A DNA stretch of 64,000 nt from Octopus vulgaris (lineage: Eukaryota): the NCBI GenBank assembly GCA_951406725.2, contig OX597823.1, positions 109,306,001 to 109,370,000 of the forward strand. The letters are read 5' to 3'. The notes beneath the pieces are model-generated. The model was not told the origin of the DNA, did no database searches, and was given only the letters and a program-made list of their open reading frames with translations. How positions within the stretch are numbered: position 1 is the stretch's first letter; each line of letters begins with the position of its first letter. The translations under genes were made by a program, and so were the position numbers. Positions 16,320 through 49,342 of this stretch are shown one piece after another.

Positions 16320-16662
16320 AGTAAAAAAATTACTGGATAATTCTAGATCCCGGATTTCTGAATTTGCATTTAGGAATGCTTTGCCTCGTCAGTAGAATAC
16401 ACACAGAAGAGAAACATAAATACATTTATATATCTATAGATACAACATACGAATACTTACATATACGAACATATACGAACATATATATGCATATATGCAT
16501 CATCAAGGCTAGTTCAAAATGCTCGCTAATTCCATGTGCGATATGGTAAAATATCACCGCAGTAAATACAGTGAGGAAATAAATTTAAATTTATATAAAT
16601 AAGAATAAGATCATTAATTTAAAATAAATCCGGGATCTAGAATTATCCAGTAATTCTTTACT
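16320..16662. mobile_element. Inverted-repeat, HHR-bearing Penelope-like remnant
   Basis: About 37-bp inverted repeat at 16320-16357 and 16626-16662 (aattactggataattctagatcccggattt), overlapping the 3' half of the HHR. Confidence 0.55.
16340..16398 (-). ncRNA. Type I hammerhead ribozyme motif with degenerate stem II base
   Basis: Minus: ATTCTA-CTGACGA-ggcaaa[gcatt ccta aatgc]aaattca-GAAA-tccggga-TC-TAGAAT; 6-bp stem I, intact core, AUC site. Confidence 0.65.
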
Positions 16663-17529
16663 GTAAACATGGGATTCCCCGTTCTCTGATTAAGCTCGGA
16701 AAGGTCCTTACAATCTATAAGCAACCTAAGAGATAAGTCATTTGTTCCCCCTCTTATGGCCCACAAACATTACTGGTCTGAGGGAGATAGCCCGTCCTTA
16801 CTGATCTCAATCTATTTATTCTTTGGTGACAACTGACCAAATGAGCCTCACGGATTCCTGCCTCCTAGAGGTGAAGAACTGCATTTATCTTTGGGTTTAG
16901 ATTCTTTAGAATCTATATTATTAATCATCATGGTCACTCATACGGTCATCATCAAATGTTTTCCCACCTCGCAATTATCAAGTCTAGAATTACTTGGACA
17001 GCAATAGTACCACCGACAGATATAATATCTCGAACAACAAATACTACCAACTCACTAACACAAGCAGCAACAGCATCAGCACCATCGCTATTATACGACA
17101 ACTAACACCAAAATACTCCGGAACTACACTGCAATCACCACTAACATCATAACCCCAACTGCAACTACAAAATGCAACAACCACCGCTGACATTATCGCT
17201 ACGACCGCAGCTACAATTACGAAAGTCATTGCTAACGCAATTACCACGACTACAATATAATAACTACCACTAACACTACTACTACAACTATAATCACAGC
17301 TTCCGTGGTTATAATTTATAGCCAAAGCCTAGGTTTGTATTTTCTAAGTTGACAGCCTGTATGCACTGAATGACACTGAGTACCACTGAGACGGTTGGTG
17401 GGCGGACACCTTTCCTCACAGATGTATCACATATTTTCAAATATTTATACATCCGTGCGAGTGAGTATGTGTGTATGTGTGTATGTGTGTTTGTGTCTAT
17501 ATGTATGTATGCGCGCACACACACCACGA

Positions 17530-17573
<44 letters not shown>

Positions 17574-18558
17574 AGAGAGAGAAAAAACAGGCGAGAGAGA
17601 GAACAGGGGAGAGAGAGAGAGAGAAGTTAGATCAAAGAAGAGAAATTATACAATACAAATAACACAATATTATCGTTAGAGGAAGGGACCAAATTAGAAT
17701 CCGCCGTTATATTTTCACAATTAAATTTTCATAAAATTTTATTTTCTTTCACGTTGTGACTCTGTTTATTTTCTTTTGCATGATTATTTAAAGACATACT
17801 TTGTTTATATTAAGTTTGCGGGGTGCCAGTGTCGTTACGGCGGCGGACAAAATTTTGAAGGGTATTCGAATTAAAGGCGGTAGGGGTAGCACCTTACAAA
17901 AATCCCTTCTTACCTAACTCCATTTATTTACACTTTTTTTTCTTTTCAGCCAGTAGTCTATGGCCATACTGCAGCACCGACGTATTTAATTTTGTTACAG
18001 ATGAGCTTATTATGAAACCTTTCACCCGATTTTCTGGAGATCTTATCCCCCGTAAATGGAGAACATATCTCCTTGTCTAAGACTCGCTAGATAATTTGTT
18101 ATTAGATGCTTTTATAACGAAAAGATGGTCACGGTTGGAATGATTTTGATCATATGCCTTCTGAATCAAGATTACCTTGTGTCTTAACAACTACGAACAT
18201 CAGTAGTAACAGAAAATTTGTTCTATGACATTTGAGTTCAAATCCCGTTATATTCATCACTTGTAACGGTTCCGAGGATCGTTGCGTTCAGTACCAGCCA
18301 TGTAACGAAATCAATGTATTAAATATATTCTTGCCTGAAGTTAATAACACGTATTCTATTTAGTTCCGTGCGTATATATTTATCCATAGTGTGAGAATGC
18401 CAGTGCAGAATGTAACTACTTGTGAATGTGACGCTATGAATCTCCTCCTACAAGCCTTATGCCTTACTCTATTATTCGAGTTCTAGATTCAGTACAAATT
18501 TTTGGAGGCTTTAGCACTTAATGCACTTAATTTACTCTTATATAACAAAGTAATGAAG

Positions 18559-18605
<47 letters not shown>

Positions 18606-18658
18606 AAACTTATTTGGAAATGGATGCGTGGCGTTCGATCATATCATACTATAAATAA

Positions 18659-18725
<67 letters not shown>

Positions 18726-18730
18726 TATAT

Positions 18731-19657
18731 AGAAGGAGCTTCTACAGGACTAGAACTGTTTCATTCAAGAGAAATCATCAGGAAGCTAGTTAACAAGAAT
18801 ATGTACATATATATATGCATATATACATACATACATACATACATTTACATACCTACATATATATGTATATTTACATGCATATATGGGTACAGGGATTAAA
18901 AAACGTGAATAAAATGAGAAACGAGAACATAAAAAGCAAAAGCATGGAAAACGAATATTTTTTCGAGTAACGAAAGAAACAAACAGAGAAACGAAACAGG
19001 CAACATAAAGAACATTCCCTTCATCGGTTGTTGCCTAGTTTATCTACTCCACGTATCGAAGGTAGGGACAAGACGCGATTTAAAACAGTCCTTCCCGCAA
19101 AGCAAATTAAAAAAAATTTGGTTAAAGTGGTAACAAAAACAGCACAGTAAGAACAAAACAGCAAAAGTTAACGGTGAGGGCTGTTAAGCCATTACGAGGT
19201 GAAGTGGTGAAAGCTAGAAAAACGAGCTTTGAGAAGAGACAGGCAAAAGCACGTCTTGTCTTTAGGAAGGAAGTGGAAGAAAGAAAGATAAATGTTGGTC
19301 ACGTGTGAGCAACGAGAGAGTCAAGGAGGAAGAGTGAGGTAGAGAGAGAGGGGGAACGGTGAAGGGGAGAGGACTGTTTTAACGAAGTCACATTTTGTTC
19401 TACCCTCGAAACGTTGAGTAGATAAAACAGGGGACAGCTGATGAAGGGAATGTTCTTTATGTTGCCTGTCTCGTTTCTGTATTTGTTTCTTTCGTTACTC
19501 GAAAAAATGTTCGTTTTCCATGCGTTTGTTTTTTATGATCTCGTTTCTCGCTTTGTTCACGTCTTCTTTCACTCTTGTACCTATATATTCATGTATATAT
19601 ACATATGTATGTAGGCATGTACATGTATGTGTGTATATATGCATATATATATATGTA
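18731..19657 (-). mobile_element. Non-coding foldback element with terminal HHR, between TA microsatellites (Penelope-like)
   Basis: Imperfect inverted arms at about 18803-19092 and 19370-19657; HHR distal to the left arm; flanked by TA-rich runs. Confidence 0.65.
18737..18787 (-). ncRNA. Type I hammerhead ribozyme motif
   Basis: Minus: AGCTTC-CTGATGA-t[ttc tctt gaa]t-GAAA-cag ttctagtc ctg-TA-GAAGCT; 6-bp stem I, 4-bp stem III, GUA site. Confidence 0.75.
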
Positions 19658-19689
19658 TATATAATTTATATTATATATATATATATAAT

Positions 19690-20066
19690 GGAGGCGCAAT
19701 GGCCCAGTGGTTAGGGCAGCGGACACGCGGTCGTAGGATCGCGGTTTCGATTCCCAGACCGGGCATTGTGAGTGTTTATTGAGCGAAAACACCTAAAGCT
19801 CCACGAGTCTCCGGCAGGGGATGGTGACGATCCCTGCTGTACTCTTTCACCACAACTTTCTCTCACTCTTGCTTCCTGTTTCTGTTGTACCTGTATTTCA
19901 AAGGGCCGGCCTTGTCACTCTCTGTGTCACGCTGAATATCCCCGAGAACTACGTTAAGGGTGCACGTGTCTGTGGAGTGCTCAGCCACTTGCACGTTAAT
20001 TTCACGAGCAGGCTGTTCCGTTGATCGGATCAACCGGAACCCTCGTCGTCGTAACCGACAGAGTGC
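19690..20066 (+). mobile_element. SINE family C, full length (tail type 1)
   Basis: Pol III A-box TGGCCCAGTGG and B-box GGTTTCGATTCC, followed by a (TTCCA)n-like tail. Confidence 0.9.
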
Positions 20067-20156
20067 TTCCATTCCATTCCATATATATATAATCTATATT
20101 ATTATACATATATGTACACACATATACATATTCATTTATATATATGTATATGTAAA

Positions 20157-20184
20157 TAGATAGACAGCAGACAGACAGACAGAC

Positions 20185-20241
<57 letters not shown>

Positions 20242-20242
20242 C

Positions 20243-20325
<83 letters not shown>

Positions 20326-20350
20326 CATAGATAGATAGATAGATAGATAG
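20157..20350. repeat. (GACA)n(GATA)n tetranucleotide microsatellite
   Basis: Direct inspection. Confidence 0.97.
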
Positions 20351-20845
20351 TACAATATTTCACACGCAGATTATTAAGAACCTAACCAAAATATTCGTTA
20401 GGACAACATTAAAATGTAATAAAATAAATGAAAGTAGTCCTGTATAACGTTGGCGATATTCAACATGAGACGTTAATATAAGTTTAACTCGTATCCAAAC
20501 AATAAAGCTTTGCTCAACAAAAGACAGAGAACAGGTGCACTGAGATTACACTAAAGTTTTATAACAGGAGAGAACAGCATATAGGACCCTTGGGTTTCAT
20601 ACTAAGGACAACTTAATGAGTTAGAAATAGCTGTTTAAATCTCACTAAAATCACATACTGCTGTTTTTAAAAATAGCATATTGGTAATTATGGGACTTTG
20701 TACTCTAAGATTTAAAAAAAAAATTAGAAAGACAAGATGGTCCCAGCTGCAGCGTCCCCGAGCTATGATCAAAAGTGTTCTTGCATGCACATTCAGTTGA
20801 TCTCTCTCTCTCTTTCTCTCTCTCTCACACACACTCACACACACA

Positions 20846-20906
<61 letters not shown>

Positions 20907-21541
20907 GAACTTAGTATCTAAAACCTCAATTTCTAATGTGTTCATATCTCCTTATTTTTCTTTTAAACAATTAGACATCTGAGTGTTATTTGAGATAGAT
21001 TTAACTGCTATTTCTAGCAGGTCTAATGACTACGTCGGTCCCGCAAAATAATGAGTGTTTGAAAGAATTAACGACACAGTAATTACTTTTATAGATTCAT
21101 CGTCATGTCAACAAGGAAAGCGGAGACGATGTTGCGGTTGCAGGAAAAATTTATTGGATAAGTCAATAGTCTATCGCAAGCACCATTCTCTGGAAGCATA
21201 TTCCTTTAAACTTGGGTAAGAGCATAACATTTTCTTAATTGTCATGTCTCAGTAGATCAAAGTAGTGGACGGAAATATAACGAATACACGCTAACAAGCC
21301 AGCGTAGCGCAGAGCGGATCTCACTGTTACCGGACAACCACGCATAAAGACTATGATTAGTATTTTATTATAGATATTGAATTGTTATTTTTATAACGGA
21401 CTGATATACTTTGCTCTCGATTAACTGTTACGATTCACCGTGGTAATCGATGATAGCAGAGTAAAATTGATGACTGATTCCTTGTGGTGCAAATTTTAAA
21501 TTTTTTTTTAATAGAAATTGTACCTTTTTATATACACGGTA

Positions 21542-21770
21542 GGCGAGCTGGCAGAAACGTTAGCACACCGGTTAACATGCCTAGTGGTATTTCGTCTGCC
21601 GCTACGTTCTGAGTTCAAATTCCGCCGAGGTCGACTTTGCCTTTCATCCTTTCGGGGTCGATGAAATAAGTACCAGTATATCACTGAGGTCGATGTAATC
21701 GACTTAATTCGTTTGTCTGTCCTTGCTTGTCCCCTCTATGTTTAGCCCCCTGTGGGCAATAAAGAAATAA
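21542..21770 (+). mobile_element. SINE family A monomer
   Basis: Head ggcgagctggcagaaacg through tail gtgggcaataaagaaata. Confidence 0.9.
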
Positions 21771-22955
21771 AAATCATAAACAGAGAAATATTTCTTTCCC
21801 TTTCAAATATTAACAGACATTTGGGGTATATCTTTGTTGTTTGCCTTCTGTAAGGTATTTGATTTCATTTCTCCACTTACGATTCGTTTCTATTTAGCTT
21901 GTTATAGTAGTAGTAGTAGTTGTTGCCTTTGATTTTGCCGTCATTGATGATTGGGTCATAGCATATTATACATAACACGATGCCAAGTTATCATTCACAT
22001 AAGTCTTAGTTATCAGGTGTATATAGCAGATACTGCTCAACTAAAAGAGTCAACTCATATAATAAGGGCTAAAAAATTCACTTGATGCTCTAAGTTTCGA
22101 TTGCATCTACTTGCATTAAGGTAATTCCAAGTATCTTATCCTTCATCGGTTTATGAAGATTGCTCTCTACAACTGACAGAATTGCCTAAGGTGCATTCAG
22201 TTTCTGTCTAACCCGACTTTAATCACAATACTGAGAAATCTTAAGCAATGATTTCATCATGTACTCCATTTCCAGTTTACACTACACCTGTTATAATTTT
22301 TCTTAAATCTTACAATTTCTATTTCTAATACCAGCTGTCTTTCTTTCGTTCGTTCTTGCTTTTCTTTCTCTCTTTTTCTTTCTACTTATTTATTTATTTA
22401 TTTCTATCTTTCTTCTTTCCTTTCATTCTGCTTTTCTTTCTTTCATTTTCCAGTTCCCTCAATGCCTCTCTTTATAAACCTATTACTCCACCTCGCTCAC
22501 TCCTACCAAATCTCTTTTCATCCCACCACCCCGCAACTCCTCTTCGTCTTCTTCTTTTTTCTCACTCTCGCTAACAATAATACCCCACCCCACAAATATC
22601 TAACTCCAACTCACCGTTATATATTTAGCATTATCCATCTGCAAAACACATTATCACTTCTGTTAAGTCATTATCACTGTAAAGCAAACATTAAACTTTA
22701 AACGTATCATCTACAATTTACCGTAAAAAACTCATTTTAAACGTGCATCTTTATCGCAAATACCATCATCATCATTATCATCACCCCACTCCTACCTCCA
22801 CCCTCGCCACCACCACCACCACCGCTGCCGTCGACACCATTTTAATCATCAGCAGCAGTAGCATCTCTATAATCTCATCATCGTCGCCATCATCATCCGT
22901 TGTCGTCAAGATGATCAGCATCATTATCCTTGTATTGATTGTCATCCTATTCCTT

Positions 22956-23188
22956 ATCTATTTCTTTACTACCCACAAGGGTTAAACACAGAGAGGACAA
23001 ACAAGGACAGACAAACGGATTAAGTCGATTATATCGACCTCAGTGCGTAACTGGTACTTATTTAATCGATCCTGAAAGGATGAAAGGCAAAGTCGACCTC
23101 GACGGAATTTGAACTCAGAACGTCGCGGCAGACGAAATACCGCTAAGCATTTCACCCGGCGTGCTAATGTTTCTGCCAGCTCGCCGCC
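22956..23188 (-). mobile_element. SINE family A monomer
   Basis: Reverse-complement match to family A. Confidence 0.9.
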
Positions 23189-23528
23189 TTTTCTTTATCG
23201 TCATCAACCTCATGGTCGTTGTTGTCATCGTGGTCATCCTCATCCTCCTCATCCTCATCTCCATCATCATGAACATCAGCCGCTCACCATATTCGTGATC
23301 AACATCTAGACAACAATATTCTGAACTTCAATATACAATAACGATTTCTGCTGTCGGCAGAAGACCATCAATTTTAAGGTAAGGTGTTAATTGACACCAT
23401 CGTATCCGAAAGGCTTAAAGGATTCGTTGAACTAGCTCGACATGATTTGAAACCTGATTGAAAAGAACCAGGTAAGAAATGCAGCATGGAAAATAGTTTG
23501 AAGCTCTAAAGACTCTGCCAGCACGCTG

Positions 23529-23762
23529 CCTATTTCTTTACTAGGCACAAGGGGCTAAACACAGAGGAGACAAACAAGGACAGAGAGACGGATTAAGTCG
23601 ATTACATCGACTCCAGTGCGTAACTGGTACTTAATTTATCGACCACGAAAGGATGAAAGGGAAAGTCGACCTCGGCGGAATTTGAACTCAGTACGTAACG
23701 GCAGACGAAATACGGCTACGTATTTCGCCCGGCGTGCTAACGTTTCTGCCAGCACGCTGCCT
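23529..23762 (-). mobile_element. SINE family A monomer
   Basis: Reverse-complement match; tctgccagcacgctgcct also occurs at 23514-23531. Confidence 0.88.
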
Positions 23763-24239
23763 TAATTGCAGAAAACAATGATAGCAATAAATAACAATAA
23801 CACCACCACCAGCAACAGCAGTTGGAACAACAATAATATAAATAATTAAAAAAATAACAGTTATTATAACGACCATACTAGCATCAACATTAACAAGAAC
23901 CACGGTAGAATTTCAGCGAAAGCTACAGCATGAGCAGTTGGGATTATTTCGTGCTAGTCTCAAATCGTTTCTCTTTTGAAGCCATCTTGCGCATTCTTTG
24001 TGATATTAATATCTTGCAAACGATCCGAAACAAAGATAACGCAATAAGTGGCACAGAGGTGATCCTACATTCTACCCTCCTCTTTTTTTTTTATTGTATA
24101 CTATTTATTTTTTTTATATTTATTCATTTTGTTTTTAGTTTTTGATTTAGTGTCGATTAAAATGCTACCACTCATCCTTGTGTCGACTCAGAGCCATTTG
24201 GCACATTCCCTGTTGGTTCCATTTTCAGATCTAACATTC

Positions 24240-24930
24240 GTTTCAAATTTTAGCACAAGGCCAGCAATTTGGGGGGAAAGGAGGAAAATTGATTACATCG
24301 ACCCCAGTGCTCGCGAAAAGATGAAAGCCAAAGTCGACGTCGGCAGAATTTGATTCTCAGAACGTAAGAACGGACGAAATGCCGCTAAGCATTTTTACCG
24401 GCGTGTTAAAGATTCTGTTAGCTCGCCACCTTAGAATACTATAAATTACAGACTCCCTATAACATTGGTTTCAAACTTTGGTACACGACCATCAATTTAG
24501 GGATGGTCGCTAAGTCAATTACATCGACACATCAACCCCAGTGTTCAACTGGTACTTATTCTATCGACCTCGAAAGGATGAAAGGTAAAGTCGACCTCGG
24601 CGGAATTCAAACTCAGAACGTAAAGATGGACGAAATGCCGCTTAGCATTTTACACTGCACAGCAATAATTCTGCCAGCTTGCTGCCTTCCTTCGGTCGAA
24701 TATTCGAATATTCTTTTCTCCTCTAAGTTCAAGGCCCGAAATTTTTGGGGAGGGCACCAGTCGATTAGATCTACCCCAGTACGCAACTGGTACTTAATTT
24801 ATCGAACCCCAAAAGGATGAAAAGCAAAGTCGACCTCGGAAGAATTTGATTCTTAGAACATAAAAATGGCCGAAATACCGCTTAGCATTTTAACCTGGGC
24901 AGTAACGATTCTGACGGCTTGCTGCATTCC
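24240..24930 (-). mobile_element. Three tandem older family A-related SINE copies (different tail)
   Basis: Three repeats of aaagtcgac(c/g)tcgg..gaatt and gaaat.ccgct.agcatttt at about 240-bp spacing. Confidence 0.75.
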
Positions 24931-25397
24931 TTGGGTGGAATATTAAACCAATCATTCATTTCATAACCGTATATTGGTAGATTATTCGGAAGCATTTAAA
25001 GTGACATAGAATGAAATTTAAATATTTCTGGATTTAAATAGTTTTTGTACAAGCTGATTTTCATGCGATGGAGGGTTTTCTTGAAACATCTGATATTGTT
25101 CTTAAAATTAACTGGCAACCTCCATCCCAGTAAAAAGATGGAGCAATGCCAACGAACAAGCAGCTTGCAGAAGCAAAATAATAGCAAACAAAAAAAAAAA
25201 AGCACACACAACAGTAAACAACAATAACAATAGTATCGCTAACATAATGAACAACATTAACTTCATCGCCGTCAAAGTGATATGTTTATGTTAACCAAAC
25301 AGCGAAAGCGATGAGGACCAATAAAGCAAAATGGGTGCCAAGAAAGCAACAAAACGAACTCATTAACTAACTAATTAGCTATCAAAATAACTAGCTA

Positions 25398-25460
25398 ACT
25401 ACTACTACCACTACCACCACCACCACAACCACCACAACCTCAACCTCTACTACTACTATT

Positions 25461-25499
<39 letters not shown>

Positions 25500-25759
25500 T
25501 ACCACCAACACCACTACGACTACTGCTACTACTACTACAACTACTACTACTAACATCATCACTACTACTACTAACACTACCTCCACCAACACCACCACTA
25601 CTACTACTACTACTACAACTACTACTACTACTACTACTACTAGTGCTATCACCATCACTACTACTACTACTACTACAACCACAACTACTAATACTACCAC
25701 TACTACCACAACTACTACTACTAGCACCATCGCAACTACTACTGCTACTACTGCTGCTG

Positions 25760-25795
<36 letters not shown>
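25398..25795. repeat. Imperfect (ACT)n/(ACC)n microsatellite
   Basis: Direct inspection. Confidence 0.95.
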
Positions 25796-26656
25796 ACAGC
25801 GTTGCATTTGTCAGTAGCCTCATTGAAACAATTAAATATCTTAGACTAAAATAAAAATTAATATAAACAACTTAATGCAAACCAAATGATAAACTCCATG
25901 TGACAGCAACAACAACGACAAGACCAATAGCAACAACAATACTACCGACAACGTCACCAACAACACCAGCAACAACAAGTACAGGAAGTTGAAAAGGCAT
26001 CAGAAACCAAAGAGAAGCAAAAGAAGCAGAATATGTATTTAAAAAAATATAAGCTGAATATATAGAACAACAGCAACAACAACAGCAACAACAGCAGTAA
26101 CAGTACCACCACCACCACTACCATTATGCTAAAAGAGTGAACTATGATAAACAATAATTGCAGGAACAATTGTAACAACGACATCAAGAAAACTTTCAGT
26201 GGGACAATTAATACAGAGAAGCCTCGAAAAAAATGTCCAGATGTTGATTAATTAAATCTTTTAATATTTCCATATTTAATTAAAGTTGATTGAATACATA
26301 CTTCCATATTAACATAGCAATGTTGCTGTTGTGATTATTGTTGCTATCGTTGTTGTTGCTGTTGTTTTCGTTGTTCTGTTGTCGCTGTTGTTGTTGTTAA
26401 GCAGCAGGACGGGTAAGGGTGATTAGGTGATGGTTTAGGGCTTAGGGGCGGGAGACCTCAGACCTTGGAAAAAAAAACAACTTTGGTCGTCTTGTTGTAG
26501 TCAAGGGCCCTTCGTTGACCCTCGACACCACTGGGAGGTGGCCCTCGAAGTTGCTGGAAATGGAGATCTCCAGGTCCAAATTCTTGAACTTGCTGTTGAT
26601 TTTGTCCCTTATTATTTTTTTTCTTGTTCTAGTGTAGCGTCCTCCAATCCCAGATA

Positions 26657-27189
26657 TCTATATATATAAAACTGTAGTTGTGTGAGTGTCTGTCCCCTTC
26701 GATTTAGATTCCTAACTACTCCCACATTTTGCGGTGCAGTTTAACCAAATTCGGGTATCTTATAGTCGTGATTCATATCGAGCCCGTCTGAGTACTAGCG
26801 CGCGTCTACGATGAGTCTACGATTTTAAAAATAATTTAACATAATTTTTTATTCCATTTTGATGCATAATATTTCGTGTGTCGATGGCGGCGGAGTTGGC
26901 GTCCATGGTCACACCTGCACCTGTTTGCTTCTCCCCCTTCTTCCCTCCCTCGTGAAGCTGTGGGGAAGGGAGTGTAAGGAAATCAACGTCGTAAAGCGTT
27001 GTCAAGGAGACCAGCGTTCTTTTAGAACAACGACTTCATGGCTTGAAGACACTGAGTCAACGATTTAAAAAAAAAAAATATCATAATTTTTTATTCCATT
27101 TTTAATGCATTTTTTTGCTATAACTCTCTAAAAATGCTTATGTAGTTATTTCCCTTACAAACCCGAGCAACGCCGGGCGATACTGCTAG
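26657..27189 (+). mobile_element. Non-autonomous Helitron (family H1 core with extra internal segment)
   Basis: A|TCTATATATATAAAA 5' end; cccgagcaacgccggg hairpin; CTAG|T 3' end; no TSD. Confidence 0.9.
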
Positions 27190-27547
27190 TCATCTATAAT
27201 TAAGCACACCCCTGATCAAAGGTTTTCCAACCTACGCAGATCCCAGTGTTTAGGACAACACTGATTGTATTTGAAATTTCTCTTTTTAAAATACATCAAA
27301 GTTATAAATAAGTTCTGTTTCGAAAGCCAACTGATGAAAGTGACTGGTTGTGTTACGATCCTGTCAGAGCTCATGCGTGACGCATATCTATCTCATTTGG
27401 CAACAAATAGACATGTTAAGTACCTTTATATCTGTGCATGTGTATATATGTATATGTGTATATGTGTATGCGTGTGTTATGGATACATACATACGTACAT
27501 AATACATATATACATGCATATATATATATATATATATACACAAACAC

Positions 27548-27592
<45 letters not shown>

Positions 27593-27633: not shown

Positions 27634-27699
<66 letters not shown>

Positions 27700-37348: not shown

Positions 37349-38113
37349 ATATATACCTTCTCCTACTCTCTCACTCCACCTTCTTCTTTATAACAAGCTA
37401 AAGCTTAAAGTTTAAACAAACAGATAGAAGAATAATATTATAAATTTAGTTCAACAAACGTTTTCCCTATCATCAGACCATCATCATCACTATAGTTTTC
37501 TATACAAAGCTCATTTCATTTCAATTCAGCTGTTTGTTTACATCTATTTCTTCCTGTCGGTGTATCTCTACTGTGACAGTACAAACCCTATCTGTCTGTC
37601 TCTCTCTTTCTCTCTCCCTTTCTCTCCTCCCTCTTTCTCTCTCCACCTCTCTCTTTCTCTTTCTTTCTTTCTTTCTTTCTCTCTAATTGGTAGTTGAGTA
37701 CTGATACATTCAAGTGCGATAGTTACTATTAGTATCACGTCTGCTCTCCTCATTGACCACTATCTTCGTAGAGAATGTCTGAGACAAAAGTAAATTAGAA
37801 TTTTATTTTAAAAGTAATTTGTTAAGATATCAATTTGTTCAGATGACAGTAAAAAGTATTACTGTTATGTATATTTAAAAGATTTTGACACTTTTTTACT
37901 CTTTTACTCTTTTGTTTCAGTCATTTGACAGCGGCCATGCTGGAGCACCGCCTTTAGTCGAGCAAATCGACCCCAGGACTTATTCTTTGTTAGCCTAGTA
38001 CTTATTATATCGGTCTCTTTTGCCGAAGTGCTAAGTAAACACACCAGCATCGGTTGTCAAGCGATGTTGGGGACACACAAACATACACACACATATATAT
38101 ATATAAATACATA

Positions 38114-38160
<47 letters not shown>

Positions 38161-38291
38161 AATAGTAAAGTGTGAAAAAACGACAGAAGGCTTAAATGTT
38201 AAAAGATATATATATTTGTGTCAAAATGTCTGGAGAATATTGGAAAAATTTTTTTTCCTTTCCTTAAAATGACATAATTTTTAAATTTTTA

Positions 38292-38331
38292 AAGAAATTA
38301 CCGGTTTCGCGTGTAGCTTTTCAAATTTCTT
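38292..38331 (-). ncRNA. Minimal type I hammerhead ribozyme, U3:A8 core variant (sense copy)
   Basis: AAGAAAT-TTGAAAA-gc tacac gc-GAAA-CCGG-TA-ATTTCTT; 7-bp stem I, palindromic loop III, GUA site. Confidence 0.75.
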
Positions 38332-38467
38332 GTGACGTTATGTTTATATTGCATGGATTTATCGTTGTTTTTATTTCCAGGAGATTTCTAAATAAGGGGA
38401 GGTAGTGAGTGATTTTTTCCGGTGTAGGGGAGATAATCGCTTAAAAAATTTTTTTCCCATTTCCTTG

Positions 38468-38696
38468 TTAATTTCTCTGTGTCAGTATGTTCGGATGGTT
38501 GAGTCTGGGTTTGTACTTTTCAATGAAGAATGTTTCCTTGTTCAGTCTCATTTGTGTTGATGATCCGAAAGCACATTGGTAAAATGGGAAGATTAAAAAT
38601 TGTGGCAGTAGTTGCTTTGCGCATTTCTCAATGTGCTCACTAAAAGGTATCATTCTATATTCTGGGAATGCAATCTGTTGTCGATGCAGTGTGCAT
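38468..38696 (-). pseudogene. C-terminal fragment of a Penelope-type GIY-YIG endonuclease
   Basis: LHRQQIAFPEYRMIPFSEHIEKCAKQLLPQFLIFPFYQCAFGSSTQMRLNKETFFIEKYKPRLN; H...H-C and R-x3-E-x2-FI-x4-P-x-LN ending typical of PLE endonucleases. Confidence 0.75.
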
Positions 38697-38742
38697 GAAA
38701 TAAAAACAACGATAAATCCATGCAATATAAACATAACGTCAC

Positions 38743-38782
38743 AAGAAATTTGAAAAGCTACACGCGAAACCGGTAATTTCTT
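38743..38782 (+). ncRNA. Minimal type I hammerhead ribozyme, U3:A8 core variant (inverted copy)
   Basis: Identical to 38292-38331, on the opposite strand. Confidence 0.75.
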
Positions 38783-38959
38783 TAAAAATTTAAAAATTAT
38801 GTCATTTTAAGGAAAGGAAAAAAAATTTTTCCAATATTCTCCAGACATTTTGACACAAATATATATATCTTTTAACATTTAAGCCTTCTGTCGTTTTTTC
38901 ACACTTTACTATTTTCTTATATATTCACCCACGTGCTTTACCAAACAAACTTTCTTATC

Positions 38960-39039
<80 letters not shown>

Positions 39040-39946
39040 TACGACAGGCTTCTTTCAGATTCCGTCTACCAAATCCACTCACAAGGCTTTGGTCGGCCCG
39101 AGGCTATAGCAGAAGACACTTGCCTAAGTTGGCACGCAGTGGGACTAAACCCGGAACCATGTGGTTGGTAAGCAAGCTACTTACCCCACAGCCATGTTGG
39201 TAGCCGAGTGCTGATACTTCTAAGTGCACCAATTACTATTGGTATCACGTCTATTCTCTTCATTGACCACAACCTTCGTATTTCTCATCATCATCATCAG
39301 CAGCAGCAGCAACAGCATCACCACCACCACCACCACCACCACCACCACCATCATCATCATCATTATAACACTGTGACATATAACTTTAGTTAGCAGGGAT
39401 GTCTTGAGGCTATTGGACGAATATTTCTTAGAATGTTCGCAATAACCAGTATAGCTCTTTTCTGCTAGTGGACAGCGTATGTCGCTACTCCAATATCCCT
39501 CAAATTCTTATATATTTGTTTCGATGTTGTGTAAAGTGCATCCGTTGACTCAGCGACAATTGTCCCTTTTGCCTCCGTCTAGGACCTTATGTTTCTCAAA
39601 TTTTCCATTCCGTTTGTATCCTCATAATTTTCATATGGTATTTGCAAAGTCTCTGATTTTACGCTGTTTATTGCTGATTTACAATCAAATCTGAAATCGA
39701 TGAAATCGATATTTTCCTCCCTTCAAAATTACAATCAGCACAGCCATTCAAAATTATTTTAAGAATCATGACATCCCTACTGAGCTTTATCCATCTTATA
39801 CCAATAAGTGCGTTATCATTTTCTGGAAATTAAAACTCATATAACTATAACCCTGTACATCATATTTCGAGTTAGGATGTTTCTCTATTTTTCTTATTTG
39901 TATTTTCGCCTTTTGAAATTCATAGAATATATATATATATATATAT

Positions 39947-40198
39947 ATACAAATAAATGAAAGAATGGAGTTGAACGACGAATTAACATTATCGCTATGG
40001 GCTCCGTGTGGGCAGTCATCTAAAAGTTTTTGTGCATCTTGATGCTGACATAAGTTCCTTGTTTTTCCTGATGAGAAGGCGGCATAATGCACCCCTTATT
40101 CCTTCGAAATTCGGAATATGCAGCCTTCGAAACATATGTCGAAAATAAAGGAATTTTGTTAATTCGTCGTTCAACTCCATTCTTTCATTTATTTGTAT
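39947..40198 (+). mobile_element. About 250-bp non-coding foldback element containing a canonical HHR
   Basis: Perfect 42-bp inverted repeat at 39947-39988 and 40157-40198; (TA)n immediately upstream and again near 40347. Confidence 0.75.
40052..40156 (+). ncRNA. Canonical type I hammerhead ribozyme (GUC site, predicted cleavage after 40140)
   Basis: Stem I aagttcctt-gt-ttttc / gaaaa-ta-aaggaattt; CTGATGA at 40068-40074; stem II gaaggc/gccttc extended by gcata/tatgc; GAAA at 40129-40132; palindromic stem III ACATATGT; C17 at 40140. Confidence 0.9.
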
Positions 40199-40342
40199 TT
40201 AAAAAAACACACAAATTTCCACACGATAGCACGTGATCTCTGCCTTAGGCATGTAGCTTCAACCGTGTTTTTCTGACGTGAATTTGCTACCCAGGTATCG
40301 GTTACCGAATTATCCATAATAAGATAATTCATTCAACTACTC

Positions 40343-40401
<59 letters not shown>

Positions 40402-40838
40402 CCCGTCATCTTTTTATATAATGTTCAAGAAATGTCTGCCTAATATATTTATTTCTGAAAATCAAGATACTCTAGAGCTGAGGCGGGGCAGCATAATTTG
40501 GTTCTTCATTTTGAAACACCTCTAAGAATTAATTGTAATCTAATATGACCACAATAAAGAAACTTTTTTATTAAATATACGAGGAAAATGTAATTATATA
40601 TTTATTGTGAAAATGTAGCTATAAATATTAAAGTAGGAAATTAAAATGCAAATTTGTGGTTGATTGTGCCAATAATTTATAAGATTGTCTTTACTATATA
40701 TACACAGATGCGTGTGCATGTTTATCAGAGAATGAGTGTATTATGCAAATGTATAGATATATTTTGCTTGTGTGTGTGTGTGTGTGTACGTATGTATCTA
40801 TCTATCAATGTATCTATTTCTTTCTCTCTCTCTATATA

Positions 40839-40898
<60 letters not shown>

Positions 40899-40901
<3 letters not shown>

Positions 40902-42528
40902 TATTATAAAAGGCAGATTTTATCTGCCTCCCTTTGTAACTTATAGAAATCTACAATATAGGATTTCTTCAATTACAATTTACCTAGCATTTTTAAGAGT
41001 AGAATGCATCGGGTCATGCCAGGTCCAGTTTTTAAAATTTAAACTCCAATTAAGCAAAATTTACAAAAAACTCACATTCTGGTGTGTATGTCAAATGCTT
41101 TTCTTAATGTGGTTTACACCACACGCACACGCACACACACAGTGTGCAACGAATAAAATGAAAGTAAATAGCGACAGAGTGATTTGAGGAAGATTAAACT
41201 GAAAGTATTTAAACCACTACTCAAAAAATAAAAAAAACACAGCAAACAGAAACAAATAAATACATAACGATTTACTCCTCACACCATTTCTTCAATTAGA
41301 GTGTACCCATGATTTTTCAGAGTTCTTCAGTGGGTGATGCCATAAAACATTTCTTTCAATTTTACCACCAATTAAGACAAAATTCGAGAAAACTCAATAT
41401 TTTAACATTTCACTCCGAAAGCATTGATGTACATGTGTGCGTGCGTGAGTGTGTGTGTGTCATTCCTCACACACATGCATACACATACATATATGAGAGT
41501 GGCAAACACAAACGTTTCAAACAACTACATACAAACACGTGTGTGTTTGTTATTAGTAAAAAAGGCGCCAAAACACAACTCACTTATCATTCCAACACAT
41601 TTGCAAAGACACACGGACGGTGGAATTGCTATAACAATACGGAAAAGGTAAATTGGTTTTTATTTTACTCTGTATATATTTTATTATATAATATTATATA
41701 TAGATATATGTATATATAATTGCAGTATGAAACAGTGTTTATGTATAAACAGACGACACTTATATATAGTTATTATAATAAGAGATTAATAAATGTATGC
41801 ATCCGTTTAACCCTTTCGTTACCAAACCGCCCGAATTTACCTATTCATATTTAAATGAGAATATCAGAGTAAATCTCTTTAGTACATTCGTGAAAACACG
41901 TATTATACTTCGTAAACACTTCAACTACAGTTTTGTACAAAAATCAAAGTGTAATTTTAATTCCGTGAATTATGGGAGATTTTTTTCCGAAATTTGTTCC
42001 TATTGTGTTTTCAAAATTTGTAATTCTGACAAAAAATGGATACGAATTTCATTATATCAAGCAGCGAGTCAGAATTCGAAGGATTTTCTACTGAAGACCT
42101 TCATAAATCTAACTCTATGACTGAAAAAAAAAGCATCTTTATATAAGAGTGAAGTTGTGTGTCTGTCTCCTACGATTTAGATTCGTAACTACTCCCACAT
42201 TTTGCGGTGCAGTTTAACCAAAACCGGGTATCTTATAGTCGTGATTCATATCGAGCCCTTCTGGGTATTAGCGCGCGTCTACGATGAGTCTACGATTTAA
42301 AAAAAATTTACCATCATATTTTCCATTTTAATGCATTTTTTCGCTTTTATATAAGGGAAGTAACTCTCTAAAAATATCTACGATGTGTCAACGATTTAAA
42401 AAAAAAATTACCTTAATTTTTTTTCAATTTTTAATGCATTTTTTTGCTATTTTTTGGCTATAACTCTCTAAAAATGCTTATATAGTTATTTCCCTTACAA
42501 ACCGAGCAACGCCGGGCGATACTGCTAG
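40899..42528 (+). mobile_element. Composite non-autonomous Helitron (family H1) with internal 5' end at 42136
   Basis: A|TCttattataaaagg at 40899; ccgagcaacgccggg hairpin; CTAG|T at 42525-42529; homologous to 8244-9416. Confidence 0.85.
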
Positions 42529-42602
42529 TATATATATAAATTAGTGTATAATATATATCTATTATATAGATACACAGATAAATAGATAAATAGATACATA
42601 CA

Positions 42603-42654
<52 letters not shown>

Positions 42655-43724
42655 TACGCACGTACATAAGTATAGTTGTATGTGTATGTTTATTTCTGTT
42701 GAAAGAGTCTTGGTCTTGCGGTAATAAGAAAGAGAAATAAATATTAAGGGATATTATCTCAATTCAAAAGATGTTATGGATTTGTGTTCAGTAAGTGTTC
42801 ACAATGTATTCGGGAAATATTTAATCACTGTGTATACACACAGTGTGAATATAAGGATGCTTCCTTGGTGATCAACATTTATAAGGCGCCACCACGTGTA
42901 TAGAGGACAAAAAAGATGAAACGAAAGAATAATTGTGATGCTTCTGCCGGAGAGAATGCTTCAAAGACTCTGGACATAACGTTATTCCTAATGTATGCTA
43001 ATTCCAAGTTGGAAGAAAGTTTTAGCTCAAATATTTGCAGAATATAGTTTGTAAATATTGTTGAACTATGTAACAGGTTTGTTAGAGGAGAAAGCATTTA
43101 GAATTAATAGAAACCTTAGTTTATTTAAGGCAAGTGGGGCAAGAAAAAGAAAAAGAATACTAGAAGGTTTTCTTTCTATGTATAACGATACCAAGCGTAA
43201 AGTGTTTTTATTTGTGAGACAAAGTCAGGGCAAATTACTCTCCGTTTAGTATCACACATGGCGAAATCGGCAAGGTGTCAATGGGGAAAGTTGTATGAGA
43301 TCCATGAAAGTTAGAAGGTTAAAAGTTTATTCCAAATGATAGACGCATTCCAGTAATAGAAGAATATGTTGCAGAAATTGTATGAAGAATAAATAGTAAA
43401 TGGATCATAGGAAGGAAAATAGGAAAAATATTTTCTAGTTTTCAGGAATAGATTCTTAAATATTGCATCAATATTGTAAGATGTCATAACAAATATTCTT
43501 ACGTAAGTTGTGTATTCGCATGCAAAATATTACCAGGAGTTTCAATAAAAAATTACCACCAGAAAATCGGTAATGACTGATGGAATGATGAGCTGTTTCT
43601 ACTTTCAATATCATTGTGGTTTGACTTGATTGCGTATGTTATTTATAAAGCGAGACAAAAATTATGGTATCATTGTAGACTCTAACACAAATCTACCGCT
43701 GATGCAGCTGCTACTACTCTTACA

Positions 43725-43760
43725 ATAACAACAATAACAACAACAACAACAACAACAACA

Positions 43761-43848
<88 letters not shown>

Positions 43849-43873
43849 CTGCTGCTGGTGTTGCTGCTGCTGC
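43725..43873. repeat. Compound (AAC)n(ACT)n(GCT)n microsatellite
   Basis: Direct inspection. Confidence 0.95.
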
Positions 43874-44187
43874 CCCCTTTGTTTTTACCTCGTTTGTAAT
43901 TCGTTGGTTAATCCTTGCCGCATTATCACGTTAGTTCGACCTGAAAATAGTCATGGGTAGATCTGTGCACCCTATACTCAGTCACTTCTAACGCATTTCC
44001 ACGAAGGAATAAATATTCAGTTGTTCAAACAAATGAGTATTTGTTTGCCGAGACTGGCGGTGAGTTTACCAGTCTATACGAATAGATTAGTTGTTGTTCA
44101 GAGTTCAAACGTCTTTGACCAACGGTCGATCAGATGAATGCTACTGTCAAATATCAACAATAGCAGAAACAGCAAAACTCACTCACA

Positions 44188-44552
44188 TCTATATATATAA
44201 ACGGCAAAATGTCTGTCTGTGTGTGTGTCCTTTATACAAATCTACAATTTTTCAGTTAGAGGGCTCGCACTTACTATGGTCAATTAAAACCGTCCAAGGG
44301 TGGTCGTGCACATCTTTATATTTCCCAGTTACCCCGCAAAAGTCATTTAAAAATCAATAGAAGTGACATTTTGTAAATTTTCTATCCAAAACCCAATCCT
44401 AATGCTCGAAACTTGATACGCCAATCGAATGCCAGCTAGCTGTATGTGATTGATCGGAGATTTGTACAGTACTCGCGTGTATGTGCGCACGCACGCAGCT
44501 GTATATGCATGCACTAACACTATGACCCGGCATTGCTGGGTCATAATGCTAA
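44188..44552 (+). mobile_element. Non-autonomous Helitron (family H2)
   Basis: A|TCTATATATATAAACGG 5' end; hairpin tatgacccggc-att-gctgggtcata; CTAA|T 3' end. Confidence 0.88.
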
Positions 44553-45087
44553 TCACAAATAAATCGTCATTACTTTCAGGGTTGAATTGTGAAGCAAAAG
44601 CAGAAAGGAAAACAAGCAGCAGTCATTTTAATGTATATCGTGATATAAAGATTAAAAAAAAACAACAAAGATTTTTAAAATGTTTTTAGTAGGATTAAAG
44701 TCGCTTGATAGATAAATAATTAGATTAGTACTTACAAAACTATAAACTGCTTCTGATACAATTAGAACGTTTGCAGTTTGTTCAATGCAGGTCATCAAGT
44801 ACAAAGTTAATGCACAGGATGATATAGATCAGTCGTTGTTGTTTGTTGTTGTTGTTCTGGTTGTTATTGTTTGTTTAGCTGCTGGTCAGTTGTGGTAGAA
44901 TAAGCATCATCAGTCTCTTCGACCATGATCATGTTTTCTTTTCAAGGTTATATATTAATGCATCATTTAACGGACTTTTTTTTTTCATTTCTTGAGATCC
45001 CTGGTGTGGTTCGATTGATACTTCTAGAAGTTTGAACAACCACGCAAAGGCTTTCTTGCTGGTTCCAGTAACAAGCTCTTATCTATT

Positions 45088-45945
45088 TGATATAAGATAT
45101 GTACCCCTAAATGATATTGATAAATGAAATGAACTATTAAGCAATTGATAAATGATATGTATACCGAAGGCACTGATAAGACATGTAACCCGAACGTATT
45201 GATAAAGAATCTTTATAAGTCACCTGTAGTTATTGATAAGAAATATGTGCCCTTCCGTTATTGTTGAAGGATATGTACAGTATGTACTTTGAAGGTAATA
45301 CTAACCGATATATACCCTGAAGGCGGCGATATTTACCCGAAGGCTGCGAGCTGGCAGAAACGTTAGCACGCCGGGCGAAATGCTTAGCAGTATTTTGGCT
45401 GCCGCTACGCTCTGAGTTCAAATTCCGCCGAGGTCTACTTTGCCTTTCATCCTTTCGGGGGCGATTAAAATGTACCAGTTACGTACTGGGTTCTATATAA
45501 AGGACTTAATCCGTTTGTCTGTCCTTGTTTGTCTCCTCTGTGTTTAGCCCCTTCTGGGTAGTAAAGAAATAGGTATTTCGTCTGTCGCTACGTTCTTAGT
45601 TCAAATTCCGCCGAGGTCGACTTTGCCTTTCATCCTTTCAGGGTCGATTAAATAAGTACAAGTTACGCACTGGGTTCGATATAATCGACTTAATTCGTTT
45701 GTTTGTCCTTGTTTGTCCTCTCTGTGCTTAGAGCCTTGTGGGTAGTAAAGAAATAGATATATACCCTGAGACTATTCATATACGTAATATACCAAGAAGG
45801 TATTGATACAAGATATGTACAGTGATGGCACTGATAAAAGATAAGCACCTTGATCTTATGGATAAAGGCTATGTGTCGAAAAGTAATTACCAAGTGATAT
45901 ATGCCTTGAAGAAAGGATATGTGCACTGACGTTATTGATGTTATC
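45088..45945. repeat. Degenerate minisatellite of about 26-30 bp (gatatgtaccngaaggyattgataa) interrupted by a SINE
   Basis: Many recognisable units on both sides of the SINE at 45342-45754. Confidence 0.7.
45342..45754 (+). mobile_element. SINE family A dimer with 14-bp TSD
   Basis: TSD gatatataccctga at 45307-45320 and 45756-45769; dimer junction near 45572. Confidence 0.9.
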
Positions 45946-46164
45946 AAGGGAATATTGTGTTTAAAATGAGTCAAGATCTATAATGGTTAGTATCCTTCTA
46001 TAAGACTGTATCTGCATAGAGGGCAAAAAGGTTTGGAGAGAAGTGCTGGAAACGTGACTACAGGCGAATACTTTTTGCGAAGCAGAGACATTTTTACAAG
46101 CTTATTCAAATACTAATATTGAATAATCGAAACGATTATTACTGGAAAACAAAGCAGAAGCAGC

Positions 46165-46211
<47 letters not shown>

Positions 46212-46324
46212 ACAAACAAATATAAATATGTATGTTTAGTGTTGACTGTCGGGAAAAATATTTACTCAATACCATAGTAGAAATTAATATATTTTTTTTG
46301 GTCGAGTCAGTCGACCAAAATAAA

Positions 46325-46375
<51 letters not shown>

Positions 46376-46419
46376 CATGTGTGCGCGTGTGTGTTGATAT
46401 AAAAGACAAAGAATGAGCC

Positions 46420-46870
46420 TGGTTGTTGCTTATCTGCAGGTCAGAATTACTCTTCCGATCTATATTCAAATTGTTCAAATTCTTGATTTTGAATTCCGTT
46501 ATTAAATAGGCCTTTATTTTAAGACACTCCTCCGAGATTTGCGTAGGTTTTGACATCTTTTTCTACTCGAAAGCATGTGTAATGCATCATTATGCATTAA
46601 TGTGTTAGAAGACAAAACATCTCCTGACAGCCTATCAACATAACACTTCCAATTTTTGCCGAATTCAATCCTAAGAGATACAGGTCAGCTCTTGTCTGTT
46701 CTGCATTCTTGGTAATATCATTCGATAGGTCTTGTTTTACAAAGCGATTAATTTTAATTTTTTACTGTTTCAATCTGAGAATAAGCTTTCACGACTTTAG
46801 CTTGAACTGTATGAAAACATATGGCTCCTGTATACGGCTGTAAGACAAATATGGAATTCTGTCTAAACAG
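46420..46870 (-). mobile_element. Decayed RLE-LINE RT thumb fragment
   Basis: Weak similarity in minus-strand frames (GGL-like region; KIKINRF..R); heavily decayed. Confidence 0.4.
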
Positions 46871-48199
46871 CTATACATACCTCACCCCTATTTATGGAAC
46901 TAAGTAGGTGCACATATACCCCATCATCCACCCACCCACACAGACACACGCACGCACACATACATACACACACACATATATATATATATGGGAGTGGTGT
47001 ATAGACACATATGTGAATATATATATATATGCCTGTGTATACGTGTGAATGTATGTATAATTAATATTAATTTTAGTTCGTAATTTAGGAACACTAAGGT
47101 CGTTGTATACAGTCAATATGCTAAACAACTGATTTAATTGCTATACGACAGAATGTTATATCTACGCTAATATATATTTTGACGAAGCATGGCGCATGAT
47201 TCTGTGATAGTTTCCCTAGAAAAACAGCGGGTTCTACTTCAATTATTTTGTTATCCATTTAGCTAACATTAGAAAATATATGAAGTTGTACAAACCCATG
47301 TAACGAGAATATGCAAACGTCCGCAGTTAACGTGTAAACGTGACTGGTGGAATCTTCTATAACCAAAATAGAACCCAATGACCTGCTATCACCATGGAAA
47401 TTTCAATTGAACATATTCTTGATAGTAAAACGGGCGTCTGATGCTGTAAGTCAAGAAACTTTAACATAATTCATGTTACATGGTGATGAGTATAATCTTC
47501 AGCGTGTAACCGATATTCTTGTTCTTTGATCAACACTTAGACCCGTATTTTCAATTCTTACTTAGAAGTGGTAGGAAATAGCGAGACAGACGCACAGACA
47601 GCTTGTGGCACCGATTTTACTCATGCAACGCCGACATTTGCATACTACATATTTTGCTTCATCAAATAATATGTAGACATAATGGTTTCTTGGCTCCAAT
47701 ATCGTTTATCTTTGTCCGTAATTTTTCTTTAAACAATATTATTTCCTTATACGTCTTTTCATTTTATATTTATTTAGTTATATTCTTTATCCCAGACATT
47801 TCTTTAGCGTTAGTTATTATTATTTTTTATCTTGTTTTGCTTTGTTTTTGCAACTTTTCATTTTTCTGATATTGATTTAAATGTCGAAAAGTATAGCAGT
47901 AACAACAACCACAAGAATAGCAAAGCAGCCGCATGAATTATGCGTATATTTGTTGTTATTGTGTATGTGTGTGTATTTGTATAGGTATATTACATTAACC
48001 CTAGTGTTCAACTGGTGCTTATTTTATCAACCCTGAAGTCAACCCCGGCTCAAATACACGTTGCACGTCTGTGGTTACTGAACTCGCATACAAACTTTAA
48101 CGACCTCAAGTGTTCTTCAATTTCCACCTAAGTACCAAGCTCCTCGACTTTATTATTATAAATAGGATCAATAGTGAGATTGATAACGTCCATATATCA

Positions 48200-49150
48200 C
48201 CACAATAAAATACTCAGAACAAGTACATCGTAAAGAAACCTTTCAAAACCATCCTCCCTACCAAGATAACATGATTAACCGTTCTTCGAAAATAAATTAA
48301 ACGAACTGCATCATTGATTTTCCTCCTAGTAAAACTGTGATCACGGTAGCTTGTATAAATGGAGATAACCTAGAAGACTTTATCAGGAAGCAACGTAACT
48401 TATTTAACCTTATCAGATCAGTAGATTTTAATGTGGTACCCATCAGTGAGATTAGGATTTTCGATGTGCATCTTCTCGCGACCACGCAGTTCACGCATTT
48501 ATCAAACTGCCTAGTTATGCAAATTTGTTTTAGAAAGGTATGGCTCTCGATATATGAGCAACCTTCTTACCCGCGACTTTTAATCGAGAGTCCTTGATGG
48601 GAACAACAGCTAAGTGATCCTCCAGAATTGTGGGAATGAGTCCAGTAATCTTCAGGAGTCTTGAGTCCTCGTTGAAACCGTTCATCCTCCAGTATATTAG
48701 ATACTTATTCTGACTGTATGGGAATATCAGATAAGAAACGAAGATATAGTGTCTGGCGAAACTGCTCAGACTGGTTCAACTGCATGAGGTAGCCACAAGA
48801 TTTCCAAAATATTCCAAAGTGAACATAAACCATACACAATGGTCCACTCAAATTGTATCAGAATATTTGTATGGTACTTGCTAAATAAGCTGATAAGGAT
48901 AGCTGTATCTACAACTTCAGTTGGCCAGTTGCACAAGCTACAAGGACAAGCCTTTTAAAAGCTGAAGTAGTGGCCTCCAACGAATAGTTTACTGTGACAG
49001 GAACTCTCTAAAGTGATTCATTAGTGCAGACTTCTTAAGGTAGAGAAGAGAAGTAATGATGAAAAACAATGTCCATAGTGAGATGAGAGATTTCCATCAC
49101 GATGAAAAAAGAAGTTTTCATAGGGAAACTTTCCAATTAAAATAATTAAA
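48200..49150 (-). mobile_element. Decayed R4/Dong-like LINE fragment (RT C-terminus to zinc knuckle)
   Basis: Minus-strand RHYIFVSYLIFPYS, GGSL, and LIRLNKLRCFLIKSS..FIQATVIT remnants; broken by frameshifts. Confidence 0.5.
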
Positions 49151-49291
49151 TTACGGAGATGTACTTGCATAGCTAGTGACTTGATCTGAGATTGTGTGCT
49201 GGAACGAAAACAATTGCAGCGTGGAAGGTGTTTATAAGCCATCTAAGAAACACACAAAAACCGTTAGATTCACTTCAACATTTAAATTTAA

Positions 49292-49342
49292 TTTGTCAAA
49301 ATATTTTCGTCGCTTTGAGCCCACGACCTGTTCACTGACAAA
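49292..49342 (-). ncRNA. Minimal type I hammerhead ribozyme, G3:C8 core variant
   Basis: Minus: TTTGTCA-GTGAACA-g[gtcg tgggctcaaag cgac]-GAAA-ATAT-TT-TGACAAA; 7-bp stem I, 4-bp stem II, palindromic loop III. Confidence 0.72.

Follow-up and report, generated by a model that had tools for sequence, protein, structure and literature searches.

Predicted hammerhead motifs in end-pieces of five high-copy families, four of them Penelope-type, in a stretch of Octopus vulgaris DNA

Why should one stretch of octopus DNA contain five type I hammerhead ribozyme motifs that are unrelated to one another? The stretch, called the window throughout, comprises 64,000 nucleotides of the Octopus vulgaris genome (assembly GCA_951406725.2, contig OX597823.1, positions 109,306,001 to 109,370,000 of the forward strand). 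A first-pass annotation made from its letters alone had placed the motifs at 16340, 18737, 38292/38743, 40052, and 49292, and we name the motifs and their families after these positions or after the base pair between core positions 3 and 8. On the basis of sequence comparison, the motifs are predicted hammerheads in end-pieces of five high-copy families, four of them of the Penelope type. We think it very probable that they are minimal hammerheads in the truncated 3' ends of five unrelated families, copied by the mechanism outlined below; four families would be Penelope-like elements (PLEs) with a reverse transcriptase (RT) and a GIY-YIG endonuclease (EN), and the fifth a non-coding tandem unit for whose copying these enzymes are likely responsible.

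We ran a type I hammerhead descriptor that allowed any Watson-Crick 3:8 pair on the window and compared the matches under five criteria with those in 60 shuffles of 1-kb blocks. The window gave 8, 5, 4, 4, and 7 matches, against shuffle means of 0.22, 0.02, 0.05, 0, and 0.05. All five sites of the first-pass annotation were recovered, with the cores, 3:8 pairs, and loop III sequences reported there. Every motif has the core N3-UGA-N7-N8-A9, GAAA, and UH, a Watson-Crick 3:8 pair (C:G in three, U:A in one, and G:C in one), and a stem I of 5-7 bp. Stem II is regular in three motifs and irregular at 18737 and 16340. For four of the five motifs, helix III is predicted to pair with itself as a duplex of -7.0 to -12.8 kcal/mol, and the 18737 motif alone is predicted to have a hairpin-forming helix III. 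Two loose matches, at 793 (+) and 31555 (-), failed the stricter filter and were dropped. The former, a U3:A8 match within 786-869 (+) with a 7-bp stem I and without a stem II, had no match in the fetched loci and is probably due to chance.

To obtain an unbiased rate, we scanned 60 evenly spaced 10-kb stretches (600 kb) of the source assembly (2.8 Gb in 227 contigs), allowing all 16 letter combinations at positions 3 and 8 and using thresholds set on the six motifs of the window. Sixteen motifs passed. Ten had C:G and six U:A, while the remaining 14 combinations gave no match, and all 16 motifs kept the core intact elsewhere. Eight shuffles of the sample averaged 1.25 matches, scattered over eight combinations. 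The density is thus far above that of shuffled sequence, and the earlier argument that swaps of the 3:8 pair speak against chance was borne out, since all 16 motifs are Watson-Crick paired in a scan that accepted any letters. One could object that the thresholds were chosen after the window motifs had been seen, and that three of these motifs have weak folding z-scores; nevertheless, the same thresholds gave the excess in an independent 600 kb, with every match paired, and within PLE terminal repeats the motifs lie where they would be expected. That they are chance matches in DNA rich in AT and in repeats is therefore exceedingly improbable.

Extrapolation from the sample gives about 75,000 motifs genome-wide, or about one per 37 kb, with a Poisson range of 43,000-121,000 that is too narrow because matches come in pairs. 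The window holds six motifs, where 1.7 would be expected at this rate. No G3:C8 motif passed in the 600-kb sample, although five BLAST matches to the G3:C8 family were present in 2 of the 60 stretches.

The Rfam hammerhead models had no match in the window at E<=1; the Rfam matches that the window did give were all below gathering score and mostly inside microsatellites. At gathering score, no Rfam hammerhead was found in the 12 sampled stretches that contain the 16 motifs, including those with canonical cores. The first-pass annotation had supposed that standard models miss these motifs through their core variants. Because canonical cores are missed as well, the variants are not the main reason, and the failure stems mainly from the minimal architecture; the supposition does apply to a strict CUGANGA descriptor, which would lose a further 6 of the 16 sampled motifs.

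Each motif, together with its flanks, is a repeat. The first-look searches returned 1605 candidates for the 38292 query, 1998 for 40052, 2024 for 49292, 2009 for 16340, and 926 for 18737; these are candidates, 40 of which were scored per query, and not copy numbers, and they agree with the expectation that the motifs are multi-copy. In four families an RT with a C-terminal GIY-YIG domain is colinear with the motif. The marks of PLE insertion were seen as well, namely partial tandem terminal repeats, 5' inversions, and extension of the tail. The ribozyme-bearing PLE mobilome that had been proposed for this genome therefore stands for these four families, whereas the 16340 family, for which no open reading frame (ORF) was found, is retrozyme-like. 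The proposed tie of four motifs to inverted repeats stands for three, each of which is accompanied by an inverted piece of its own element (Table 1). The 18737 motif abuts (TA)n, and the inverted repeat near it is unrelated; the 49292 copy has a target duplication instead of an inversion.

Table 1. Hammerhead motifs and the element copies that contain them, in window coordinates.
Feature	Position	Strand	Description or basis
Type I hammerhead motif	16340..16398	-	C3:G8, irregular stem II, near-palindromic helix III
Copy of ~480-490-nt tandem non-coding unit	16128..16628	-	~90-93% identical to natural dimer in locus L101
Inverted 37-nt piece of 16340 element, at its 5' end	16626..16662	+	Family comparison
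Type I hammerhead motif	18737..18787	-	C3:G8, U10.1·U11.1, 16-nt imperfect palindrome containing ctag in helix III
Short 3'-end copy of young Hydra-type PLE, inserted at (TA)n	18725..18805	-	Family comparison
Minimal type I hammerhead motif	38292..38331	-	U3:A8, 2-bp stem II, ACCGGU palindrome
5'-truncated copy of young Neptune-like PLE	38149..38696	-	Family search
Second, identical U3:A8 hammerhead motif	38743..38782	+	Descriptor
Inverted 5' copy of U3:A8 PLE end, ~40-nt longer tail, then (TA)n	38697..38961	+	Family comparison
Type I hammerhead motif	40063..40145	+	C3:G8, long stem II, ACAUAUGU palindrome
5'-truncated end of Hydra-like PLE, between (TA)n tracts	39987..40345	+	Family comparison
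Inverted 45-nt tail piece of 40052 element	39944..39988	-	Family comparison
Minimal type I hammerhead motif	49292..49342	-	G3:C8, bulged G after A9, 5-bp stem II, AAUAUU palindrome
204-nt end-piece of autonomous PLE family	49149..49352	-	Flanked by 7-8 nt target duplication, no inversion

For the U3:A8 family, the link to a PLE can be read in the window itself: positions 38471-38695 code for the last 75 aa of a GIY-YIG endonuclease, with 100% identity to the family protein. The top-scoring copies are 100% identical over 427 nt. A full copy (locus L031; unit 4007 nt) has a hammerhead on either side of its ORFs, in the order hammerhead, 451-aa ORF1, overlapping 811-codon RT/GIY-YIG frame, and second hammerhead 140 nt past the stop. 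Pfam RVT_1 matched ORF2 (E 2.8e-7), and 773 homologues were found at E<=1e-20, with RVT_1 in most and GIY-YIG in many of those listed. The protein has GxKF, DKG, a CX4CxxC linker, and a CCHH-type GIY-YIG endonuclease. With its (TA)n targets, it resembles the Neptune clade (GxKF, DKG, CX2-5CxxC linker, CCHH-type EN) as described by Craig et al. (2021; PMC8557442), and we call it Neptune-like by this motif set alone; published work is cited here and below from the parts of each paper that were consulted. Changes in stem II and in the palindrome among relatives of the 38743 motif are compensatory.

The U3:A8 family differs from the Neptune clade of that description in its separate ORF1, which overlaps the RT frame. 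The overlap lies at a U UUU UUA heptamer, in the -1 register (L031:4932-5103, G000:C12). The heptamer was identical in 37 of 37 occurrences from 30 loci, some of them overlapping, and ORF1 was whole in 12. From these sequences, a programmed -1 frameshift in this EN+ PLE is likely; no convincing pseudoknot was predicted downstream of the slippery heptamer. The legend of Figure 1 in PMC8557442 mentions an ORF1 separated by a frameshift, the clade being unspecified in the text. Raw RNA reads of a diverged relative give almost no cover of the U3:A8 hammerhead region, so read ends there are uninformative on cleavage.

The 18737 family is young, with copies 96-100% identical, and the U10.1·U11.1 opening of stem II is its family-wide state. 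In L158/L164, one hammerhead lies ahead of the ORF and another 2.9 kb beyond it, giving a unit of 5239 nt; this copy carries a frame break. The protein, read from two frames in L158, has a C-terminal GIY-YIG domain, RWR, DKT, a CxCX5C linker, no CCHH, and CxxC and CxH. These features, apart from RWR in place of RWK, and also the (TA)n targets and the hammerhead, are those of the Hydra clade (PMC8557442), whereas the 5.2-kb unit with its 2.9-kb 3' region is longer than the "generally <3 kb" given for that clade. We rejected the 166-nt inverted repeat at 18900-19565 as a part of the 18737 element, as it matches a different repeat. It is a miniature inverted-repeat transposable element-like repeat with 166-nt inverted arms, found at other loci at 66-84% identity.

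In four of the five long loci fetched for the 40052 family, the hammerhead is preceded by a GIY-YIG ORF whose end lies 557-573 nt upstream. Stem I of the window motif is predicted to extend to about 40053-40153, and changes in stem II and palindrome among relatives are again compensatory. The proteins of the 40052 and 18737 families are 44% identical in the RT and 36% in the EN. The 40052 endonuclease has the CxxC and CxH of the Hydra clade, whereas an Asn-rich stretch stands where the CxCX5C linker is expected; the N-terminus was not recovered. An identification of either ORF as Naiad was rejected because the endonuclease is C-terminal in both.

The G3:C8 family, with its swapped core pair and its likely weak cutting, is the one that stands out among the five. 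Its longer copies reach an RT/GIY-YIG ORF by way of a 3' region rich in microsatellites. In a younger subfamily, whose open frames reach 1025 codons, the hammerhead lies about 1.0 kb past the stop; L294 has the order hammerhead-ORF-hammerhead with a unit of 4261 nt. Loop II of the subfamily has changed, and the G3:C8 core and the stems are kept in 19 of 20 parsed copies. Copies with intact ORFs retain G3:C8. A CX3CxxC linker and a CCHH-type GIY-YIG domain are shared with the Neptune and Nematis clades (PMC8557442), a label given by motifs alone.

Among 92 distinct copies of this family that were parsed, 76 have G3:C8, 10 G3·G8, 4 G3·U8, 1 G·A, and 1 A·G. The G3·G8 sub-lineage comprises 10 or more separate copies with different flanks, nine of which share a loop variant, and all of which are located on contig C16 (L184, L191-L197, L203, L205; G000:C16). 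Many of the longer G3:C8-family copies are on C16 as well. C3:G8 is found in a related PLE family (55% identity over 815 aa), whose motif shares the bulged G; a single compensatory pair separates the two stems II, and position 9 is C in six of six occurrences. This C9 family (L295-L297, L300; e.g. L296:5718-5765) is a young PLE with a 1312-codon open frame, and its hammerhead-like motif is missed even by the relaxed descriptor.

Many G3:C8 copies are short. Of 38 copies in the first search, 20 had their first base 14-16 nt ahead of stem I, and several carried an additional G (49352; L065-L094); these clustered ends would be compatible with a capped start site as well as with a 3' splice site. 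No RNA dataset was listed as containing the G3:C8 piece. In three raw RNA runs of the diverged relative, of each of which about 6% was used, reads covered it about equally on both strands.

The 16340 family is of a different kind. Sequence upstream of the motif repeats that downstream, and head-to-tail dimers occur with periods of 478 (L101) and 492 nt (L109). The window copy is 5'-truncated and spans the hammerhead plus about 210 nt beyond it. Its stem II needs an extra A before GAAA and has lost a pair present in most of the family. The copies show an identity of about 87-91%, and thus are old; in 30 loci they exhibit 5' truncations, inversions, and (TA)n ends. Stem I covaries, with a double change in 4 of 34 rows, G-U in 2 of 34, and C·A in none. 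In most copies (L095-L124), the CUGAC of the core can pair with a GUCAG just before GAAA, a predicted alternative fold that would block the active core. RT fragments near copies of this family and of the G3:C8 family (L170, L171) were set aside, as they are not colinear with the hammerhead.

Judged by its sequence, the 16340 family fits the behavior of a retrozyme without long terminal repeats (non-LTR). Like metazoan non-LTR retrozymes (PMC7229834; bioRxiv 10.64898/2026.07.22.740005), it consists of non-coding units in tandem, each with one type I hammerhead. In contrast to them, the unit has about 480-490 nt and not about 220-350 nt (PMC7229834), and the family was seen only as dimers and is dispersed with PLE-style inversions and tails at about 88-91% identity. 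Could all five families, then, be non-autonomous retrozymes or short interspersed element (SINE)-like elements that spread as small ribozyme-released RNAs? The ORF-less tandem unit of the 16340 family would suit this, as would the many G3:C8 copies of about 205 nt with target duplications and clustered 5' ends. However, the colinear RT/GIY-YIG ORFs refute it for four families, and the 5' ends of the short G3:C8 copies lie about 15 nt ahead of stem I and not at the cut site. As an account of all five, we consider it quite improbable.

We return to the explanation by PLE copying. From published PLE work, the PLE protein would nick AT-rich DNA, and reverse transcription would start about 20-260 nt downstream of the hammerhead; in the anole PLE, reverse transcription starts inside its RNA, and AT-rich DNA is nicked (PMC11167929). 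Copying would often stop early or flip, and (TA)n would be left with short ends that carry the hammerhead and are often inverted. Where a transcript has two terminal repeats, its two hammerheads would be able to pair through their self-complementary helix III and would then cut slowly, as a dimer; minimal PLE hammerheads are reported to cut poorly and as dimers (PMC4209133, PMC6765202). Individual insertions probably do not each require cutting, since the copies retain sequence on either side of the cut site. Hammerhead cleavage in the anole PLE requires the protein, core mutants insert normally in vitro, no RNA sequencing reads end at the cut site, and a C3G/G8C double change partly rescues cleavage (PMC11167929). 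The 3:8 tertiary pair appears to be held by pairing and not by letter, so that lineages have fixed C:G, U:A, or G:C. Tentatively, and with less than even confidence, we suggest that long-term selection for cleavage makes this pair covary from one PLE lineage to another, while single rounds of transposition can do without it, as might be seen in the G3:C8 family, its C9 relative, and the G3·G8 sub-lineage.

Alternatively, the folds could truly derive from hammerheads, while several of them (G3:C8, 16340, and perhaps 18737) no longer cut and are kept in the terminal repeat as signals, either structural or for the binding of protein, or are passengers. The spread of the G3·G8 sub-lineage to different flanks, the sequence kept on either side of the cut site in all inspected copies, the predicted CUGAC/GUCAG pairing in most 16340-family copies, and the anole results on core mutants and read ends all point this way. 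Against it, the 3:8 pair is Watson-Crick and the remaining core intact in all 16 sampled motifs, and the young G3:C8 subfamily changed its loop II without losing core or stems. The partial rescue by C3G/G8C also argues for cleavage, and both U10.1·U11.1 and a 2-bp stem II occur in natural hammerheads (PMC3088659). On balance, the loss of cutting in these families strikes us as rather unlikely.

Several observations weigh against predicted hammerheads copied by PLE enzymes as the explanation for all five motifs. No RT/EN ORF was found for the 16340 family, as 30 of 30 top loci stay inside the unit of about 480 nt, so its link to PLE enzymes comes only from the shape of its insertions; as these loci were selected with a query spanning the unit junction, a rare ORF-bearing master could have escaped. 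The minimum-energy structure of the 16340 motif is not the hammerhead shape. Folding z-scores are unremarkable for three motifs (0.78, 0.29, and -0.04), and the predicted helix III self-duplex of the G3:C8 motif is very weak at -0.2 kcal/mol. The G3·G8, G3·U8, and other unpaired copies imply that the 3:8 pair is not needed for every copy. Finally, in the RNA runs of the diverged relative, a weak test, read ends did not pile up at the G3:C8 motif.

Minimal type I hammerheads in PLE pseudo-LTRs were described by Cervera and de la Pena (2014; PMC4209133). The octopus motifs resemble these in being of type I with a short palindromic helix III, in belonging to many unrelated families per genome, in occurring mostly as single truncated copies or close opposite-strand pairs, and in having a base bulged between 9 and 10.1. 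A U3-A8 family is reported there too (about 1,300 matches in Schistosoma), and natural U3:A8 is also in PMC3088659. The density differs, at about 75,000 here against 2,000-9,000 per genome, with different descriptors; the consulted parts of that paper contain neither G3:C8 nor a cephalopod. In the literature searched, which was covered in part, we found no cephalopod hammerhead survey. Nor did we find a natural G3:C8 in that literature, including the consulted parts of PMC6155905 and PMC6431247, and other reports could hold one. The engineered C3G/G8C of the anole PLE (Frangieh et al. 2024, PMC11167929) is the same swapped pair as in the 49292 family; there it was engineered, whereas here it is a natural state in a family with intact ORFs.

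The overall picture has already been published for other animals; this is real, mostly known biology with one natural core variant. The window confirms that picture for a further animal, in which the motifs are dense and escape Rfam. The G3:C8 family and its paired, unpaired, and C9 relatives in one genome offer constructs for asking whether cleavage matters to PLE transposition. If the 3:8 pair does covary under selection yet is dispensable in single rounds, this genome would be a natural experiment on the role of PLE hammerheads. Hydra-type PLEs are represented in the window too, as are a Neptune-like PLE that has two ORFs and a likely -1 frameshift, and a retrozyme-like unit that bears the marks of PLE insertion.

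Further hammerhead families, unrelated to the five of the window, were seen at L222, L226, L233, L239, L249, L254, L261, L290, L298, and L301; several of these have U3:A8 with CCGG or CGCG loops. Elsewhere in the window, two-copy tandems of a 184-186-nt unit at 3504-3875, 45390-45760, and 63033-63407 are probably a common SINE-like repeat.

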